The position numbers and the translations under genes were made by a program. Shown here in pieces: positions 34,952-42,084 of a stretch of 64,000 bases of DNA. Below the pieces are notes generated by a model, which saw only the letters and a program-made list of their open reading frames with translations, was not told the DNA's origin and made no database searches. Every line of letters begins with the position of its first letter. Positions within the stretch are counted from its first letter, which is position 1. This stretch comes from Thermoproteota archaeon. Its GTDB lineage: Archaea > Thermoproteota > Thermoprotei_A > Sulfolobales > Ignisphaeraceae. The stretch is from positions 160,001-224,000 of the forward strand of contig JAUQPB010000002.1 of NCBI GenBank assembly GCA_030550585.1, given 5' to 3'.

Positions 34952-35003
34952 AATCAGTGTGTAGGGGGTCATCACATTATCAGTAACCGGATTAAACATC
35001 ATT
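34952..35003 (-). ncRNA. Box C/D guide sRNA
   Basis: Minus strand: AUGAUGU (C, 35002-34996), UUAAUCCGGUUA, CUGA (D'), UAAU, GUGAUGA (C'), CCCCCUACACA, CUGA (D, 34957-34954); canonical 11-12 nt guide spacing. Confidence 0.85.
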
Positions 35004-36399
35004 ACCCTAGAAATCCTCTTATCTTAGCTAGTGCGGCTATATGGGGCTCCACAGGATTTAGCTCTAAGATATTCTTGTATGGTTCGTTCGGCTCTGGCTT
35101 TATGCCCATGTAGTCTAGAACTTCATTAACAGTCTTAACTATTGTTTCATCGAGTCTCTGCTTTGCTATGGATGGTACATAGAATTGTGATTCATACTCC
35201 CACTCATCTATAAGATAAGGCATATAGTTTAATATCTCGTCAATTTCGTTGTTCTTATATGCATTTAGTAGATATTCTGCATCTAGGTATGTGGGTGGGA
35301 GGCCTAGCACATACCAGGTAGCTGTATAGACTATAGCTCGTGGCACATTAATCGTTTTATCCTCTGTTGGGAATATTCTACCATACTCCTTCCAAGTGAT
35401 CCTATCCCTCGTTGATGGTATACTTGCTGCGTATTTTACTACGGTTTCTAGGTATCTTGTTACAGTCTTTTTATAGCTTTCACTTGCACTTCTTATAATC
35501 CTGAGGACAGTTGATGGAATGCTTTTCGGTTTTTTGCCAAGCCACTGGATAATAGTTGATGAAACCTTTCTATAGTCTGTGAAAGGAACATCGTATCTCA
35601 CAGCAGACTGTATTGTAGCTGTGCAGTAACCTTGGTAGTGCCTAACCTCGTATTCTACAAGTTTTGGATTGTTTATTCCTCCTCTAAACGAGGGCGAGCC
35701 CATACCTATTATTGGCTTGATATCCAAGTCCAGCTCCTCATCTATTTTCTGCAACTCGCTCAACGCATACATTAAACCCAAGGCTGATGCTATATGCCCT
35801 GCTCTCACAGCTGCATCGCTTTTTCCTAGGAAGACCCTTAAGTGATTCAGTTCAACGCCAAACTCCTTCACAGTGTTATACAATATAGTTATATATCTGT
35901 GGATCTCCAGAAAGCGACTTGTATCTTCCACTAGCGGAACTAGCTGTACATCCATTTTCGGAAGCCCGAGCTCTTCTTGAAATATTCTAGCCTTCTTTAT
36001 AACAAGTTTCTGAACAAGCCTTACGCTATTAGGATCCTCGACCATTGGCATTATAACCCATTTAACTGCCTGGGCATTTACATAGTGATGCGAATAGTAG
36101 TTGGCTATGAGTGATGCCTCAAGAGATAATGCAACTCTGTCGATATCCTCGAGTTTTGGATTGGGTATCCTAGGGGTAACAAAGTATTTCTCTCCAATTG
36201 GAATACCTAGTTTCACAGCTTTTGTGACAATATCCTTTGGCTGTGCATAGGGTGTTAGCTTACCCTCATAATCACTCATAACCTCGTCGCATTCATACAT
36301 TGTATAACCTTGGAGAGCTTCGTCGACTTCTTCTTGTGCTGTTATCTTCACTGAGGCATCTGGATGCTGAGTGCACATAAGCCTAGGTATAAACTCCAT
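35002..36399 (-). CDS. ppcA: Archaeal-type phosphoenolpyruvate carboxylase
   Basis: IPRLMCTQHPD, DYEGK, RVFLGKSD, GMGSPSFRG, PRAI, RGFLG C-terminus. Confidence 0.93.
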   Translation of the reverse strand: MEFIPRLMCTQHPDASVKITAQEEVDEALQGYTMYECDEVMSDYEGKLTPYAQPKDIVTKAVKLGIPIGEKYFVTPRIPNPKLEDIDRVALSLEASLIANYYSHHYVNAQAVKWVIMPMVEDPNSVRLVQKLVIKKARIFQEELGLPKMDVQLVPLVEDTSRFLEIHRYITILYNTVKEFGVELNHLRVFLGKSDAAVRAGHIASALGLMYALSELQKIDEELDLDIKPIIGMGSPSFRGGINNPKLVEYEVRHYQGYCTATIQSAVRYDVPFTDYRKVSSTIIQWLGKKPKSIPSTVLRIIRSASESYKKTVTRYLETVVKYAASIPSTRDRITWKEYGRIFPTEDKTINVPRAIVYTATWYVLGLPPTYLDAEYLLNAYKNNEIDEILNYMPYLIDEWEYESQFYVPSIAKQRLDETIVKTVNEVLDYMGIKPEPNEPYKNILELNPVEPHIAALAKIRGFLG

Positions 36400-36414
36400 T
36401 AAGATCACCTTACA

Positions 36415-37613
36415 CTAATAGCTAAAATATTTTGTGATGGTGTCCGGATCTTTAAGCGCATGACCAGTTGCAATAAGTACAGCAAGACCATTCCTGTCTA
36501 TGAGCCCCATCTCAACAGCCTTTCTATAACCAGCAAGCGAAGCTGCACTAGCAGGCTCAACCCCAATGCCCTCATATCGAGCCAAATCCTTTACACCCTC
36601 CAAAATCTCATTGTCAGATACTGTAATGAATACTCCACCAGATTCTTTAACAGCGTTCAGAGCCTTTAACCAGTTGACTGGCTTGCCAATTCTAATAGCA
36701 GATGCTATTGTCTGCGGTTTTTCAACTTCGATTAGAGCATTGCTTCCGGTTTTCCATGTAGCAACAAGTGGGGCTGCACCTTCAGCTTGAACTCCGATCA
36801 TTTTAGGCAACTTATTTATTAGGCCATAGTTGTAGAGCTCTTTGAACCCCTTCCAAATAGCTGATATATTACCTGCATTTCCAACAGGAACAACAACTGC
36901 TTCTGGCACCTCAGAAAGCTCATCAACAATCTCAAAAGCTATTGTCTTCTGCCCCTCTAGCCTCCATGGATTGTAAGAGTTTAGCGGATACAAATCTCTT
37001 TTACCATTTATAACAGCCTCGGTGAAAACCTCTTCCAACGCATCATCAAATACCCCATCAACCTCGACAATTTTCGCACCATGTAGAAGTGACTGAGCGA
37101 GCTTTCCTCTCGCAACACCACCACGCGGCAACACAACAACGCATTTAAGACCTGCTCTCGCAGCATAAGCCGCTGCTGAAGCAGCAGTATTGCCGGTGCT
37201 TGCAACAACAACACCCTCAACACCTAGATGCTTGGCTATTGTCACACCAACTGTCATTCCCCTATCCTTAAAGCTCCCAGTTGGGTTCCCACCCTCGAAC
37301 TTCACATACACATTTCCATTGACAGCTCTATTAACTCTGATAAGCGGTGTGCCACCTTCGCACATTGTAACAGGCTCTATATCATCATTTATAGGTAGTA
37401 GCTCTCTATATCTCCAAACGCCAAACCTTCTTCTTCTTGCTTTATCCCAGCTAAAACTTGTTTTAGCAGGCATTACAACTTCCAATAGGTTTTTACATCT
37501 TGGGCATATGAATAGCCATGGATCTGGATCGTAGACAGCTCCACATTTTATGCATCTAAGTTTTACTCCGTCTTTGAATATTTTCTTGTGTGGAGAACTT
37601 TCTATGTTTCCAA
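36415..37613 (-). CDS. thrC: Threonine synthase with N-terminal Zn ribbon; 5' end needs a frameshift or a non-canonical start
   Basis: NPTGSFKDRG, ASTGNT, RLEGQKT, PVGNAGN, TGHALKD; frame stays open upstream of 37485 through CIKC/CPRC to a TGA at 37617-37615 with no ATG/GTG/TTG. Confidence 0.88.
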
Positions 37614-37663
37614 GTCATCCACCATAGTCTAAATATACTTTGGGACAGGGGTTAAAAAACTTT

Positions 37664-38701
37664 CTATGAATGTATTTCAGAGTTTAGAACCTTCACAAGA
37701 GCATTAACAACATCAACTGTTTTGTAGGTTCCCCCTAGATCTGGTGTCAAAATTTTTAGATCTTCCACCACGGTATGTATAGCCTTATCCAAGTTTTTTG
37801 CCTTTACATGGAGATCAGCATCATCGAATTTTTCATATAGGTAGTAGAGCATCAACTTAGCAGCCTCTATCTCTCCAATAGGGTTGGCTATACCCTTTCC
37901 AGCTATATCGGGGGCTGTCCCATGAACAGGCTCAAAAACAGCTATGTCACTGCCTATTTGTGCAGAGCCGCATAGTCCAAGGCTACCAACCATAGCTGCG
38001 GCAAGATCAGATAGGATATCTCCATATAGATTTGGTGTAACCATAACCCCTAATCGTTCGGGGTTTCTAACAATTGTGTAAGCAGCTGTATCAACAATAA
38101 TCTCTTCTGCAGTTATATCAGGATATCTCTTAGCTACTTCAAAGAAAACATCTCTGAAGAGTCCATCGGATATCTTCAAAACATTGGCTTTGTGAACAAC
38201 TGTGACTTTTTTAAACCCGTTTTTCTTAGCATAGCTAAATGCATATTCTGCTATCCTTTTAGCACCTTCATAGGTAATGATCCTAAGAGATATGGCCGTT
38301 CCTTTAAATAGCCCCTCGATACCTACATAGACATCCTCGCTATTCTCTCTAACTATAACAAAGTTGAAATCCTTTAGTGAAAAGCCCTTGAAGCTCTTAA
38401 AAGGTCTCACATTGGCATACAAGTCAAGTTCTTTTCTAATCAAAATATTGATGCTTTTGAACTCTTTTTCATGTGGGGGTGTATAGAGAGGACCCTTCAA
38501 GATGGCATCCATCTTCTTGGCAACGTCAAAAAAGCCCTCCTCTAGTGGCTTTCCAAAACGCTTGTAGTATTCGTATCCAGCCCTCAGCTCAACAAATTCA
38601 GCATCTATTCCAAGGGCATTCAACACATGAAGTGCGGCATCAACTATTTCTGGCCCTATACCATCTCCCTTCAAAACCCCTATCTTGTACCTCTTGACCA
38701 T
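37664..38701 (-). CDS. Isocitrate/homoisocitrate/isopropylmalate dehydrogenase family
   Basis: GDGIGPEI, LYANVRP, VRENSE, HKANVLK, NLYGDILSD, FEPVHGTAPDIAGKG. Confidence 0.9.
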   Translation of the reverse strand: MVKRYKIGVLKGDGIGPEIVDAALHVLNALGIDAEFVELRAGYEYYKRFGKPLEEGFFDVAKKMDAILKGPLYTPPHEKEFKSINILIRKELDLYANVRPFKSFKGFSLKDFNFVIVRENSEDVYVGIEGLFKGTAISLRIITYEGAKRIAEYAFSYAKKNGFKKVTVVHKANVLKISDGLFRDVFFEVAKRYPDITAEEIIVDTAAYTIVRNPERLGVMVTPNLYGDILSDLAAAMVGSLGLCGSAQIGSDIAVFEPVHGTAPDIAGKGIANPIGEIEAAKLMLYYLYEKFDDADLHVKAKNLDKAIHTVVEDLKILTPDLGGTYKTVDVVNALVKVLNSEIHS

Positions 38702-39201
38702 GGAAGTCCACCATATCTCTTGATGTATTCTACAACTCCGCCAACCTCAAGAATGTCAAGAATTTCCTTGGGGAAGGGGGTAAACCTCTCTTCAACGCCT
38801 TTTGTAATGTTCCTTACAATGCCATTTGATATATCAACCTCTACCACATCTCCTGTCTCGCTAACATCTGGAATGATCTTTGCAACAATCACCGGCAGCC
38901 CAATGTTTATAGCATTTCTGTAGAATATGTGTGCAAAGCTCTTAGCAACAATAGCTCCAACTCCAACAAGCTTTAGTAGTCTTGGTGCCTGCTCTCTGCT
39001 AGAGCCTTTCCCAAAGTTTCTGCCACCAACAATTATATCGCCTTTTGAAACCAGTTTGTAGAATCCAGGTATAACGTCTTCAAGTACGTGAACAGCCATC
39101 TTATTCATATCATTTATGGCTTCGAATTTGTATTTCCCAGATATTATATGGTCTGTACTTATATTGTCTCCAAGCTTCCAACACTTTCCACGGACAATCA
39201 C
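38680..39201 (-). CDS. LeuD/HacB-type hydro-lyase small subunit
   Basis: [30 protein letters not shown]. Confidence 0.88.
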   Translation of the reverse strand: MIVRGKCWKLGDNISTDHIISGKYKFEAINDMNKMAVHVLEDVIPGFYKLVSKGDIIVGGRNFGKGSSREQAPRLLKLVGVGAIVAKSFAHIFYRNAINIGLPVIVAKIIPDVSETGDVVEVDISNGIVRNITKGVEERFTPFPKEILDILEVGGVVEYIKRYGGLPWSRGTR

Positions 39202-39213
39202 ATTGGCCCACCC

Positions 39214-40467
39214 CTAAGAAAGGTATTTCCTGGGATCAGCTATTCTACCCTCTATAGCTGTAGCAGCGGCTACAGCGGGTGATGAGAGGTACACCTTGCT
39301 ATCTCTATGTCCCATTCTACCCGGGAAGTTTCTGTTTGTTGTTGCCACAGCAACTTCGCCAGCTGCTAAAAGACCCATGTGAGCACCTACACATGGTCCG
39401 CATGTTGGGGGTGCTATAGTGCATCCTGCACTAGCAAGAATGTCTATATAGCCTCTTTTCAGAGCCTCCATATAGACCTTTCTAGAAGCTGGTGATACTA
39501 TACATCTTACACCATCTTTTACCTTTCTCCCATGCAATATTCGTGCAGCTATCTCTATGTCCTCCAACCTGCCATTTGTACACGAGCCTATGAAAACCTG
39601 GTCAACCTCTACGTTGCTTACTTCACCAACACCTTTAACATTGTCAACATCCGGTGGAGCAGCTACCACAGGCTCCAATTTAGAGACTTCAACAATAAGC
39701 TCATCAACATAGCCATCTTCTTTTTCCCAATCAACATCCCTGTAAATGGTATACCCTCTTTCATTTAGCCACTTCCTAGCAACCTCATCAACTGGCATAA
39801 TAGCCGACTCAGCGCTCATCTCTGTGCACATATTTGTTAACGTCATTCTAGAGTCTACACTTAGATACTTCAGTGTATCACCTCTAAACTCAACAGCTCT
39901 ACCAAGCATACCGTCAGTACCTATACTACCTATTATGTGAAGCGCTATATCCTTGCTCATAACACCTTTCGGCATGGCCCCTGTTAAAACAACCTTAGCC
40001 GTTTCAGGCACCTTAAGCCACAGCATCCCAAACATCATGGCAATAGCTGCATCGGTACTTCCAACCCCAGTAGCATAAACACCTATGGCACCAATTGTTG
40101 GTGTATGGCTATCTGCTCCAACAACAACCATGCCAGGTCTAACAAGACCATCTTCAACAACAACTTGGTGGCTAATACCATAACCCACATCGAATAGTTT
40201 CACCCCATACTCTTTTGCAAATCTCCTCATCTCCTTGTGAACAGTAGCAGCAGCAACGTGTGGGGCTGGAGAAGAGTGGTCAATGAAGAAAAATGCTCTT
40301 TCTACAGCAACTCTTCTCTTTAATTCGAGCTCTTTTTCAACAACATCTATTACAAGCGGCGCTGTGCCATCTTGTGCATAGACAGCATCAATGTTTATGA
40401 CAACTATCTCTCCTGGTGAGACATTTCTGCCAATTGCTTTAGACACTATCCTATCTATCAAGCCCAT
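39214..40467 (-). CDS. LeuC/HacA-type hydro-lyase large subunit
   Basis: QDGT, GADSHT, GSCTNGR, CGPCVG, TTNRNFPGRMG. Confidence 0.88.
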   Translation of the reverse strand: MGLIDRIVSKAIGRNVSPGEIVVINIDAVYAQDGTAPLVIDVVEKELELKRRVAVERAFFFIDHSSPAPHVAAATVHKEMRRFAKEYGVKLFDVGYGISHQVVVEDGLVRPGMVVVGADSHTPTIGAIGVYATGVGSTDAAIAMMFGMLWLKVPETAKVVLTGAMPKGVMSKDIALHIIGSIGTDGMLGRAVEFRGDTLKYLSVDSRMTLTNMCTEMSAESAIMPVDEVARKWLNERGYTIYRDVDWEKEDGYVDELIVEVSKLEPVVAAPPDVDNVKGVGEVSNVEVDQVFIGSCTNGRLEDIEIAARILHGRKVKDGVRCIVSPASRKVYMEALKRGYIDILASAGCTIAPPTCGPCVGAHMGLLAAGEVAVATTNRNFPGRMGHRDSKVYLSSPAVAAATAIEGRIADPRKYLS

Positions 40468-40503
40468 TCAAGGAACACCTCAAGAAAATCTTCGAATATC
40501 TTT

Positions 40504-41808
40504 TTACCGTGTCTTTCTCTCGACCTCGGGAAAATGCTTCTTCACGATTTCAAGCATTTCACTATCTGATAGTGGCTCAACTCTATTGGTCTTATTGAAC
40601 AGCTCTACAATTTCGTTGTATATTGCAACAACTCTTGGATCATCTTTTGATATATGGTTATATCCGAGATAGTTCTTAAGCCAGATTACAATAGCCGACC
40701 TTCCAGAGTATGGGGTTATTGCGACAGAGTATGGTAGTCCCAGAACCTTCACTGGATCGAATGGCAAGTAAACCTCCGGGTTCTTTAAAAGACCGTCGGC
40801 ATGTATACCTGCTTTTGTTCTAAAAGCATTCTTACCTACAATTGGGTAGTGCTCAATTATTTTGAGCCCCATCCTCTCAAAGAGTTCAGGTAGCTTTGAC
40901 AAAGCCTTCAAATTTATTCTGTTGTCACCTCTTATAGAAGCATAGTGAATAGCCATAATTTCTAGTGGGCAGTTACCAGCTCTTTCACCAATGCCTAGAA
41001 GAGTGCAGTTGCCAGCTGCTGCACCATAAATCCATGCCGCAAGTTGATTAGCTACAACAAGCCCAAAGTCGTTATGACCATGAAACTCTATATACTCTTG
41101 TGGAATGCCAGTAGCCCTCCTAATTGCTTGTATAATTGCTGGTATCCCTCTTGGAAGTGGCACCTCTGGAAATGGTAGTCCGAGCCCCAGAGTATCTGGG
41201 AGCTTTATCTTTACAGGTGTTCTGTACTTCTCGCTTAACTCGAGAAGCCTCTTTACAAAGGGTATCACAGCTCCGAAAATATCAGCTCTTGTAATATCCT
41301 CTAGAGACGCTCTAATTGTTATCCCATGACTAAGAGCCTTCTCAGCAACCTCTAAATATTTTCTAAAAGCCTCTTCCCTTGTCGCATTAAACTTGTACTT
41401 TATGTGATAATCAGATATAGACATGAGCATAACAGTCTCGTCAAGCTTCGCATCTATAACAAGCTGGAGATCTGTATGGGTGGCTCTTATCCAGCCTATT
41501 ACCTTTGGATACCTATATCCATATGATAAAAGCCTCTTCACAGCTTCCCTATCCTTTTCTGTATACAGAAATACTTCTGTGCTTTCAATACCTCCCCTAC
41601 CACCAATATCGGCTAAAAGCTCGTAGATCTCCTCACATTCTTCAACAGTGAAAACCCTCCAACCCTGTTGGCCATCTCTAAGTGTAGTATCGGTAAGAAA
41701 AATCTTACTTAGATTTTCCCTAAGCTCAGCATCTGTAACAACAAGTCTTGGCACACTATCAAATGGATAGAGATCTCTGAAAAACTTCATATCCCCATCT
41801 AATCCCAT
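40504..41808 (-). CDS. DRE-TIM metallolyase, Re-citrate synthase-like (homocitrate/isopropylmalate synthase superfamily)
   Basis: TDTTLRDGQQ, FLYTEKDREAV, GWIRA, MSISDYHI, LEDITRAD, HGHNDFG, AGIHADGL. Confidence 0.8.
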   Translation of the reverse strand: MGLDGDMKFFRDLYPFDSVPRLVVTDAELRENLSKIFLTDTTLRDGQQGWRVFTVEECEEIYELLADIGGRGGIESTEVFLYTEKDREAVKRLLSYGYRYPKVIGWIRATHTDLQLVIDAKLDETVMLMSISDYHIKYKFNATREEAFRKYLEVAEKALSHGITIRASLEDITRADIFGAVIPFVKRLLELSEKYRTPVKIKLPDTLGLGLPFPEVPLPRGIPAIIQAIRRATGIPQEYIEFHGHNDFGLVVANQLAAWIYGAAAGNCTLLGIGERAGNCPLEIMAIHYASIRGDNRINLKALSKLPELFERMGLKIIEHYPIVGKNAFRTKAGIHADGLLKNPEVYLPFDPVKVLGLPYSVAITPYSGRSAIVIWLKNYLGYNHISKDDPRVVAIYNEIVELFNKTNRVEPLSDSEMLEIVKKHFPEVERKTR

Positions 41809-42084
41809 GGAAACATCACCAGATATCGCTTAAGTTATACAAGTTTCGTGCAAACCTAAAATAATTGTCTTATAATGCTATGGTGCGTGTTTATGGACAT
41901 CAGTCTAAAGAACTCCGCACTATTAGTAAATAGTTTAATGCGGATTCTATAACATGAAAGTGCCGTGACAAAGAACCAAACCCTGTAATTGTTATATACC
42001 TTTTAAAATTGCTTAAACACGTTTTAGCCGATAAATTTATATACCGATAGGCTTGAACAGAGATTAAGATTTGGTGAACACCTT

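Follow-up and report, generated by a model that had tools for sequence, protein, structure and literature searches.

A conserved out-of-frame start and threonine codon ahead of thrC in an Ignisphaera-like archaeon and its relatives: a candidate amino-acid-gated -1 frameshift

Analysis of a 64,000-nucleotide stretch of archaeal DNA (the window: positions 160001-224000 of contig C7 of a 1.76 Mb genome, G000, 99.9% complete, whose relatives are named Ignisphaera in databases) revealed that the threonine synthase gene (thrC) has no canonical start codon (ATG, GTG or TTG) in frame ahead of its N-terminal zinc ribbon, and that it is preceded instead by a Shine-Dalgarno (SD) element plus a mini open reading frame (mini-ORF) of three codons and a stop, TTG-GAA-ACA-TAG, placed one base out of frame. 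Leaders of the same kind recur in thrC loci throughout the order. We give a probability of about 0.55 to the reading that thrC is expressed by a programmed -1 slip of the tRNA in the ribosomal P site, gated by the cognate threonine codon in the A site; the slip, its regulatory direction and the role of the SD are what we infer from sequence comparison.

The gene lies on the minus strand (36415-37614). Its frame opens after a TGA at 37617-37615 and begins with CTT GGA AAC ATA GAA, the deduced product reading L-G-N-I-E-S-S-P-H-K-K-I-F-K-D-G-V-K-L-R-CIKC...CPRC. As a preliminary description of the locus had stated, no ATG, GTG or TTG occurs between this TGA and TTG 37485, which is already past the zinc ribbon (37554-37495). 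The enzyme of about 399 residues predicted there agrees with the stop-to-stop frame of 399 codons, which matches TIGR00260 with 306.9 bits (cut-off 167.1) over residues 66-391 and is covered by the PRK08197 alignment over residues 18-396; PF00291 is carried by ThrC relatives, and thrC is a single-copy orthologue in this nearly complete genome. The product has the archaeal zinc-ribbon form, with C21, C24, C37 and C40 of P0001 placed before the pyridoxal phosphate domain and invariant or nearly so in the ThrC alignment (A1). Judging from the sequence, this ribbon must be translated.

Close relatives of the protein are annotated in databases with 350-363 amino acids, beginning after the ribbon (e.g. 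P0002), and gene callers start them just past the equivalent of TTG 37485, at a Met five codons downstream; other relatives extend upstream through 'LGNI' where a chance start permits. The shorter calls would fit a decaying thrC, or one that yields only a ribbon-less enzyme from TTG 37485 or ATG 37473, as annotated. We regard this as highly improbable, since the ribbon cysteines and the upstream frame are intact in all start-less loci, the leader layout persists across 45 genera and thrC is single-copy. Eight public ThrC entries (P0002, P0026, P0029, P0087, P0092, P0124, P0171 and P0175; 350-372 aa) lack the ribbon or enter it mid-way, and such shortened annotations are artefacts that gene calling produces systematically where the in-frame start is missing.

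The out-of-frame arrangement set out in the preliminary description was found as stated: the SD, GGTGG (37623-37619), is followed by the mini-ORF at 37613-37602, composed of TTG (37613-37611), GAA (37610-37608), ACA (37607-37605) and TAG (37604-37602), with an upstream ATG at 37625 in the same frame. The 16S rRNA 3' end of the host genome reads ...GGATCACCTCCT, and the spacing from GGTG to the start codon has a genome-wide mode of 7. The genome contains the complete block, GGTG-N6-KTGGAAACATAR, a single time, and the thrC leader pattern exceeds what chance would give. Counting that of the window, 16 out of 16 thrC loci in the genus have GGTG-N6-(T/G)TG-GAA-ACA-TA(G/A), with TTG as mini-ORF start in 13 and GTG in three, TAG or TAA as stop, and GAA-ACA invariant; in eight of them the ribbon is not preceded by any canonical in-frame start. 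That an assembly or sequencing error of one base in GGAAAC caused the missing start, an alternative retained in the preliminary description, can be put aside with near certainty. Metagenome contigs X1, X3, X4 and X5 show substitutions over 37300-37900 and, in all four, no inserted or missing letter (one of the four runs may be the DNA source, while X3, with a depth of 213, X4 and X5 come from other studies), and the identical frame layout is present in the 16 genus genomes and many others. In a 94%-like strain in X5, the base before TTG is changed and ATG 37625 is replaced by GTG. Among the sequencing runs listed as containing this locus, none was an RNA run.

The survey of thrC 5' ends was extended to the order, in which a search of 325 genomes gave ThrC at E <= 1e-90 in 180; 80 loci were drawn from the matches listed (30 matches were unlisted), with a ceiling of two loci for each genus, or of one in family f13, and were combined with 26 earlier loci. 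Of these 106, L107, which contains a run of N, and L068, in which no CxxC was found, were dropped, leaving 104, and the paralogues L028-L031 (<=42% identity) were left out. A start codon followed by ACN within two codons, within 100 nt of the first Cys, was present in the +1 frame, relative to which thrC is -1, in 78/104 loci and 45/58 genera, but in the +2 frame in only 13/104. Among 27 zinc-ribbon thrC loci from outside the order, mainly from other phyla and taken from the matches listed in a profile search with alignment A1, the +1-frame pattern occurred in two and a canonical in-frame start in all 27. No canonical in-frame start was found in 31 of the 104 order loci, 23 of which keep CxxC...CxxC and the other eight CxxC...CxC. 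The conservation of an out-of-frame start plus ACN, which the preliminary description had proposed to look for in related genomes, is thereby borne out well beyond the genus.

More than half of the order loci (57/104) fit the narrower form start-(0-2 codons)-X-XAA-ACN, with G-GAA in 47 loci (24 genera) and C-CAA in ten (8 genera). The base before the P-site codon thus co-varies with it, as a -1 re-pairing site requires; the codon preceding CAA is TTC, CGC, CCC, CTC or AGC, its final base being C in all cases. The start is TTG in 36 loci, ATG in 14 and GTG in seven, and the Thr codon changes synonymously (ACA 45, ACG 9, ACC 3). The distance from the site to the first Cys takes 16 distinct values from 14 to 89 nt, all of them 2 mod 3, and the 0-frame stop follows 0-13 codons past the Thr codon. 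GGTG is found within 16 nt of the mini-ORF start in 52/57 loci, with a spacing of 5-8 (mode 6). Its distance to the P-site codon is 8-13 nt, and in bacteria -1 shifts are reported to be favoured by an SD in this range. A canonical in-frame start is absent in 26/57, and in five of the 57 loci, from three families (L025, L059, L060, L026 and L067), a near-cognate start is absent as well. As is expected of programmed frameshifting, the loci have a pair of overlapping frames whose relation is fixed and kept from species to species, and the downstream frame lacks a start of its own.

Variants of the layout include TTG-GAT-ACR in family f2 and A-TTG-ACR in three genera of family f8 (g24, g25 and g30), where the thrC frame reads ATT GAC. 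Loci L023 (GTG GAA ATA AAT) and L027 (TTG AGA AAC AAT) are in-frame counterparts and look like fused versions of the layout. In family f13, TTG-GAA-ACA precedes thrC in 13 of 13 sampled genera; by protein names this family is Sulfolobaceae (Aramenus, Acidianus, Metallosphaera, Saccharolobus, Sulfurisphaera and Sulfolobus acidocaldarius), and in most of its thrC genes the annotated product begins M-K/R-C, its start placed two codons ahead of the Cys; L067 and L099 lack such a start. In genus g66 of family f3, loci L076 and L105 carry ATA and ACG at the mini-ORF start instead of ATG (ATA CTC CAA ACC and ACG CCC CAA ACC, respectively), which suggests that weak starts are tolerated there too.

The same comparison bears on the idea that TTGGAAACA is a DNA or RNA signal, such as a regulator site, with the mini-ORF reading incidental. 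Its nucleotides are invariant even between families with no more than 55-60% identity in ThrC, and its flanks form a palindrome or hairpin in three loci. Against such a signal, the first codon varies only among ATG, GTG and TTG and the Thr codon only synonymously, a single frame relation is kept over 16 spacings with the SD 5-8 nt before, neither an Rfam match nor a conserved structure was found for the leader, and the CAA, GAT and TTG-ACR variants share the codon logic but not the sequence. We consider this explanation very improbable.

According to the proposed slip mechanism, the SD would place the ribosome on TTG 37613, GAA would be read next, and the peptidyl-tRNA-Glu in the P site would wait for Thr-tRNA at ACA. 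Were Thr-tRNA to arrive, the next codon would be the stop and only M-E-T would be made. Were the A site to stay empty, tRNA-Glu(UUC) could slip one base back from GAA to GGA, converting the A-site codon from ACA (Thr) to AAC (Asn), and translation would continue in the thrC frame as M-E-N-I-E-S-S-.... A fall in charged tRNA-Thr would in this way raise the output of threonine synthase, forming a sensor-effector loop with a sensible direction, that is, more enzyme when the amino acid is short. For the A-TTG variants, both AUU and UUG might accommodate the initiator tRNA, and the register would be set by the first elongator tRNA. A P-site -1 slip would be the simplest single account of the layout.

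The decoding partners fit such a slip: tRNA-Glu(UUC), the only tRNA-Glu found, pairs with GGA by G:C, G.U and A:U, and the use of XAA rather than XAG ensures a U34 tRNA. GAA is a minority codon in the host genome (38% of Glu codons). Classical -1 programmed ribosomal frameshifting (PRF) by tandem slippage does not apply, as G_GAA_ACA is no X_XXY_YYZ heptamer and tRNA-Thr cannot re-pair on AAC, so that a slip needs an empty A site. A conserved downstream hairpin or pseudoknot was not found, the RNAalifold consensus of the 16 genus sequences being empty and nothing folding at 85 C; the folding z-score of the leader is -0.8, and no Rfam family matched it at E up to 1. Neither a known RNA family nor a conserved structure would be expected if the slip takes place beside an empty A site. 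The leader does not qualify as a transcription attenuator: it has a single Thr codon, matches no Rfam leader and lacks a conserved structure.

Several points weigh against the slip. ACA is not rare but the commonest Thr codon (55%), and re-pairing is imperfect, with a middle G.U for G-GAA, a C.U for C-CAA and a purine clash for G-GAT. We know of no documented precedent for a shift at codon 2-3 of an ORF. Canonical in-frame starts are kept in 31 of the 57 motif loci; in five genera ATG directly follows AAC, at the position of the ATA of the Ignisphaera-like genus, and plain initiation at this ATG may be what happens in part of the order. In the host genome, ATA and ACG also look like working starts when 5-8 nt from GGTG. 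Finally, the thrC loci are related, for which reason the counts overstate independence, and the X-XAA-ACN class was defined after the data had been seen.

The ATA that overlaps the mini-ORF stop offers the main rival for the Ignisphaera-like genus, either as a restart or as an initiation codon, and this alternative, already named in the preliminary description, stays, since other genes of the genome appear to start with ATA. In its restart form, M-E-T would be made, the ribosome would stop at TAG and reinitiate on the overlapping ATA (ATAG, a degenerate ATGA), and ThrC would begin M-E-S-S-P. Termination-reinitiation is established in archaea (as described in parts of PMC6728339), and ATGA/TAATG coupling has the same -1 frame relation. 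ATA and the adjacent stop are kept in 16/16 genus loci, genus g27 of family f8 reads TTG GAA ACA TGA, with an in-frame ATG in place of the ATA that makes a true ATGA overlap, and such ATGA overlaps are also present in genera g85 and g91 (true ATGA or GTGA overlaps being found in g27, g85, g91, g96 and g81). However, the conservation of ATA carries no separate information, as it is forced by ACA plus TAR, and ATA is not enriched at the overlap across genera (4/32 genus-level TAR cases, below the 1 in 4 expected). In contrast to ATGA coupling, the restart codon of thrC would be ATA, and most lineages are without a start at the overlap. Reinitiation leaves the invariant GAA, the G-GAA/C-CAA covariation and the Thr codon unexplained, cannot serve the start-less loci in which the 0-frame stop overlaps CTA, TTA or GTA, nor the serA-like gene discussed below, and would, by stalling at Thr, lower ThrC when threonine is short. 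On balance we judge restart at ATA unlikely, although it has the best claim among the alternatives to the slip.

It appears less probable still that ribosomes start directly in the thrC frame, on a non-canonical codon such as ATA 37605 or an AAG or ATA farther downstream, with the TTG mini-ORF as a decoy or as a case of ambiguous initiation. Non-canonical starts seem common in the host (ATA in the valyl-tRNA synthetase (ValRS)-like and PP-loop genes, ACG in the thrB-like gene), database relative P0033 starts at the I of IFR, and ambiguous initiation at overlapping starts is documented in E. coli (parts of PMC9841429). Yet ATA 37605 is 14 nt from GGTG, a spacing found in 6/297 genes, versus 6 nt for TTG; the downstream ATA, nine codons before the Cys, is GTA, TTA or GTT in 4/16 genus loci; synonymous differences upstream of it (L005/L006 and L013/L017) suggest a start further up; and five loci are without any near-cognate codon.

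Four other routes into the thrC frame were considered and rejected. No homopolymer longer than A3 or C4 is present at the site for transcriptional slippage; a ribosome hopping from GAA would land on the GAA at 37602, a codon that is not conserved; and tRNA-Thr could slip by +2 from ACA onto the AUA of the stop overlap only where a stop abuts the Thr codon, so that this route is not general. As to the third-frame ATG at 37618 followed by Thr, to which the preliminary description had drawn attention, ATG-ACT does exist in the window, but it is not kept in relatives and was discarded as a thrC start.

A comparable design was found in two further genes. Upstream of a serA-like gene of the window, which the preliminary description had singled out as sharing the design, an SD (42073-42076) is followed by TTG-TCG-... 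(42085-42108) in the +1 frame of a start-less frame resembling phosphoglycerate dehydrogenase (PGDH), which opens at 42078 after a TGA inside its own SD. Among the genus loci, 10/15 are without an in-frame start, whereas in other families the gene has ordinary starts. The name serA-like is tentative: the TIGR01327 score (317.8 bits) is below the cut-off of 454, profile position 1 aligns with residue 8, and the product is a short form without the ACT domain, for which PGDH is the best-scoring family and glyoxylate reductase the third. A scan of other genes for the pattern, likewise proposed in the preliminary description, added pheS (G000 C7:305152-306645, minus strand, outside the window; NF003210, 524 bits; loci L138/L142). 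Its leader, SD-N7/8-A-TTG-TTT or -TTC with a stop after 0-9 codons, is present in 23/23 family loci, where the pheS frame reads ATT GTT and its third codon begins only with T or C, though it encodes L, S, R or Q; most of these loci are without a canonical in-frame start, and the ATT could itself be the pheS start. In the genome-wide scans for this design only thrC, the serA-like gene and pheS stood out, most other candidates having a nearby canonical or ATA start, and the other aminoacyl-tRNA synthetase genes (12 domain matches, three Pfam families) have ordinary starts except for the ValRS-like gene with ATA.

As read from these leaders, the layout is repeated with cognate codons: Thr for thrC, Ser for the serA-like gene (in the genus) and Phe for pheS (in the family). 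The hungry-codon reading of the preliminary description is thus partly supported by the comparison, in that the layout is real and conserved beyond the genus, the Thr codon is kept, the repeated base co-varies and Ser and Phe parallels exist. Tentatively, and at somewhat below even odds, we suggest that Thermoprotei of the Sulfolobales/Desulfurococcales order, Sulfolobaceae models included, use a family of frame switches gated by cognate codons. Each would consist of an SD-led start one base out of frame with the cognate codon 0-2 codons later, and a -1 slip, or a -1 register choice at initiation, would take place only when the cognate aminoacyl-tRNA is scarce, giving a purely translational amino-acid sensor that would stand in for bacterial attenuation.

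The layout can be set beside several known systems: the autoregulatory +1 frameshift of RF2 (prfB) of bacteria (parts of PMC5009743), hungry-codon leftward frameshifting (Gallant and Lindsley 1992, as summarised in PMC8211752), fucA1 of Saccharolobus solfataricus, the only reported archaeal -1 PRF according to passages of a 2021 review (PMC8211752), and ambiguous initiation at AUGUG/GUGUG in E. coli (Kohl et al. 2022; parts of PMC9841429). The proposed thrC slip would share with hungry-codon shifting a single-tRNA P-site slip beside a vacant A site, a limiting aminoacyl-tRNA and no need for RNA structure; the latter is an error or laboratory effect, whereas thrC would have a conserved, positioned and gene-specific switch. 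RF2 and the proposed thrC switch have in common a very short 0-frame ORF, preceded by an SD-like element and closed by a stop that ends unshifted ribosomes, and a P-site tRNA that would slip into the productive frame while the A-site codon is read slowly for want of what the gene or its pathway provides. Unlike in RF2, the thrC shift would be -1 and not +1, its gate an amino-acid sense codon and not a stop, its SD would also serve initiation, the shift would fall at codon 2-3, and the hosts are archaeal. Like thrC, fucA1 is a cellular archaeal gene needing a -1 shift, but its shift site, the tandem slippery heptamer A-AAA-AAT, is mid-gene and has no known amino-acid logic. Cognate leader codons also sense charged tRNA in the leader-peptide attenuation of the thr, phe and his operons of bacteria, to which pheST of E. 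coli is subject; unlike there, thrC has a single codon and neither terminator nor antiterminator hairpins, and it is the reading frame, not transcription, that would be affected. The AUGUG/GUGUG sites resemble the A-TTG variants of pheS and of thrC in g24, g25 and g30 in having two overlapping starts, two frames and an SD-dependent choice, but they are E. coli sites with a 2-nt offset and, in the parts of the paper at hand, no cognate-codon gate is described. No recoding of thrC, serA or pheS in archaea was found in the literature searched, in which PMC8211752 and PMC5009743 were covered by search terms and outside which lay subscription papers and supplements that may bear on the claim (e.g. 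Sulfolobus transcript-start and proteome tables).

If correct, the thrC slip would bring the cellular -1 frameshifts of Archaea to two and would be the first of them to show a clear regulatory logic; roughly 20 nucleotides would make up an amino-acid sensor that involves neither RNA structure nor a protein factor. To our knowledge, neither attenuators nor T-boxes are known in crenarchaea, and the slip would provide one answer to how these organisms tune amino-acid genes to charged-tRNA levels. It would be testable in tractable relatives, as Sulfolobus acidocaldarius and Saccharolobus belong to the family with TTG-GAA-ACA before thrC. In practical terms, gene callers shorten or misplace the starts of thrC, the serA-like gene and pheS in these lineages.

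The features of both leaders within the window are collected in Table 1.

Table 1. Positions of the thrC and serA-like leader features and frames in the window
Feature	Positions	Strand	Basis or remark
TATA/BRE-like (BRE, transcription factor B recognition element) candidate promoter box AAAGTTTTTTAACCC	37648..37663	-	directly after stop (37664) of upstream leuB/ICDH-like gene
Shine-Dalgarno GGTGG	37619..37623	-	6 nt before TTG
TGA closing thrC frame upstream	37615..37617	-	sequence
Mini-ORF TTG-GAA-ACA-TAG (M-E-T-stop)	37602..37613	-	+1 frame relative to thrC
Proposed shift site G-GAA-ACA	37605..37611	-	X-XAA-ACN in 57/104 order thrC loci, single frame relation
In-frame ATA overlapping mini-ORF stop (ATAG), rival start/restart codon	37603..37605	-	kept in 16/16 genus loci
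thrC frame from shift site (GGA) to stop	36415..37611	-	TIGR00260; PRK08197
N-terminal zinc ribbon CIKC...CPRC	37495..37554	-	sequence; first CxxC present in 104/106 sampled loci
First canonical in-frame start TTG, past zinc ribbon	37483..37485	-	356-aa ORF
serA-like leader: SD GGTG, then TTG-TCG(Ser)-ACA-AAT-ACA-AAG-TTC-TAA, +1 frame	42073..42108	+	T-TTG-TCG invariant in 15/15 genus loci
serA-like (short PGDH-like) frame, no canonical start before first beta strand	42078..43013	+	TIGR01327

A box similar to AAAGTTTTTTAACCC is present at a similar distance in 15/16 same-genus loci, L012 being different. It probably acts as the thrC promoter, with a transcript start predicted near 37629 from the usual archaeal TATA-to-start distance. 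A hairpin is predicted at 37589-37626 of the minus strand, in which the SD (GGUGGA) pairs with a downstream UCCAC and GGAAACAUAGA lies in the loop. It is restricted to L002-L004, with a compensatory pair (GGUGAA/UUCAC) in L004; the remaining 13 loci of the genus do not conserve it, and at 85 C it is unstable. The genes at 35002-41808 of the minus strand are, in order, leuA-like, leuC, leuD, leuB/ICDH-like, thrC and an archaeal-type phosphoenolpyruvate (PEP) carboxylase gene; the gap between thrC and the PEP carboxylase gene is 6 nt. This gene order links oxaloacetate supply with the end step of the aspartate family.

In a scan of metagenomes for the pattern, only L263 encodes ThrC among the matches listed (at least 118 loci), the rest being chance matches. 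Elsewhere in the host genome, long genes without a canonical start (ValRS-like, PP-loop ATPase-like and others) have ATA 5-8 nt after GGTG, and ACG is found at this spacing in the thrB-like gene and in a gene for an FAD/NAD-binding-like protein. The genes with non-canonical starts are located at G000 C4:160614 (+), C4:577024 (-), C6:92524 (+), C7:24112 (+), C7:357934 (-) and C7:352847 (-), and non-canonical initiation may be frequent in this organism. A further gene, at C1:27026-27994 (+), encodes a 309-aa protein that begins with a CxxC...CxxC ribbon, has about 30 codons without a canonical in-frame start and carries GTG-GGG-CAG-AGA-TAG in the +1 frame.

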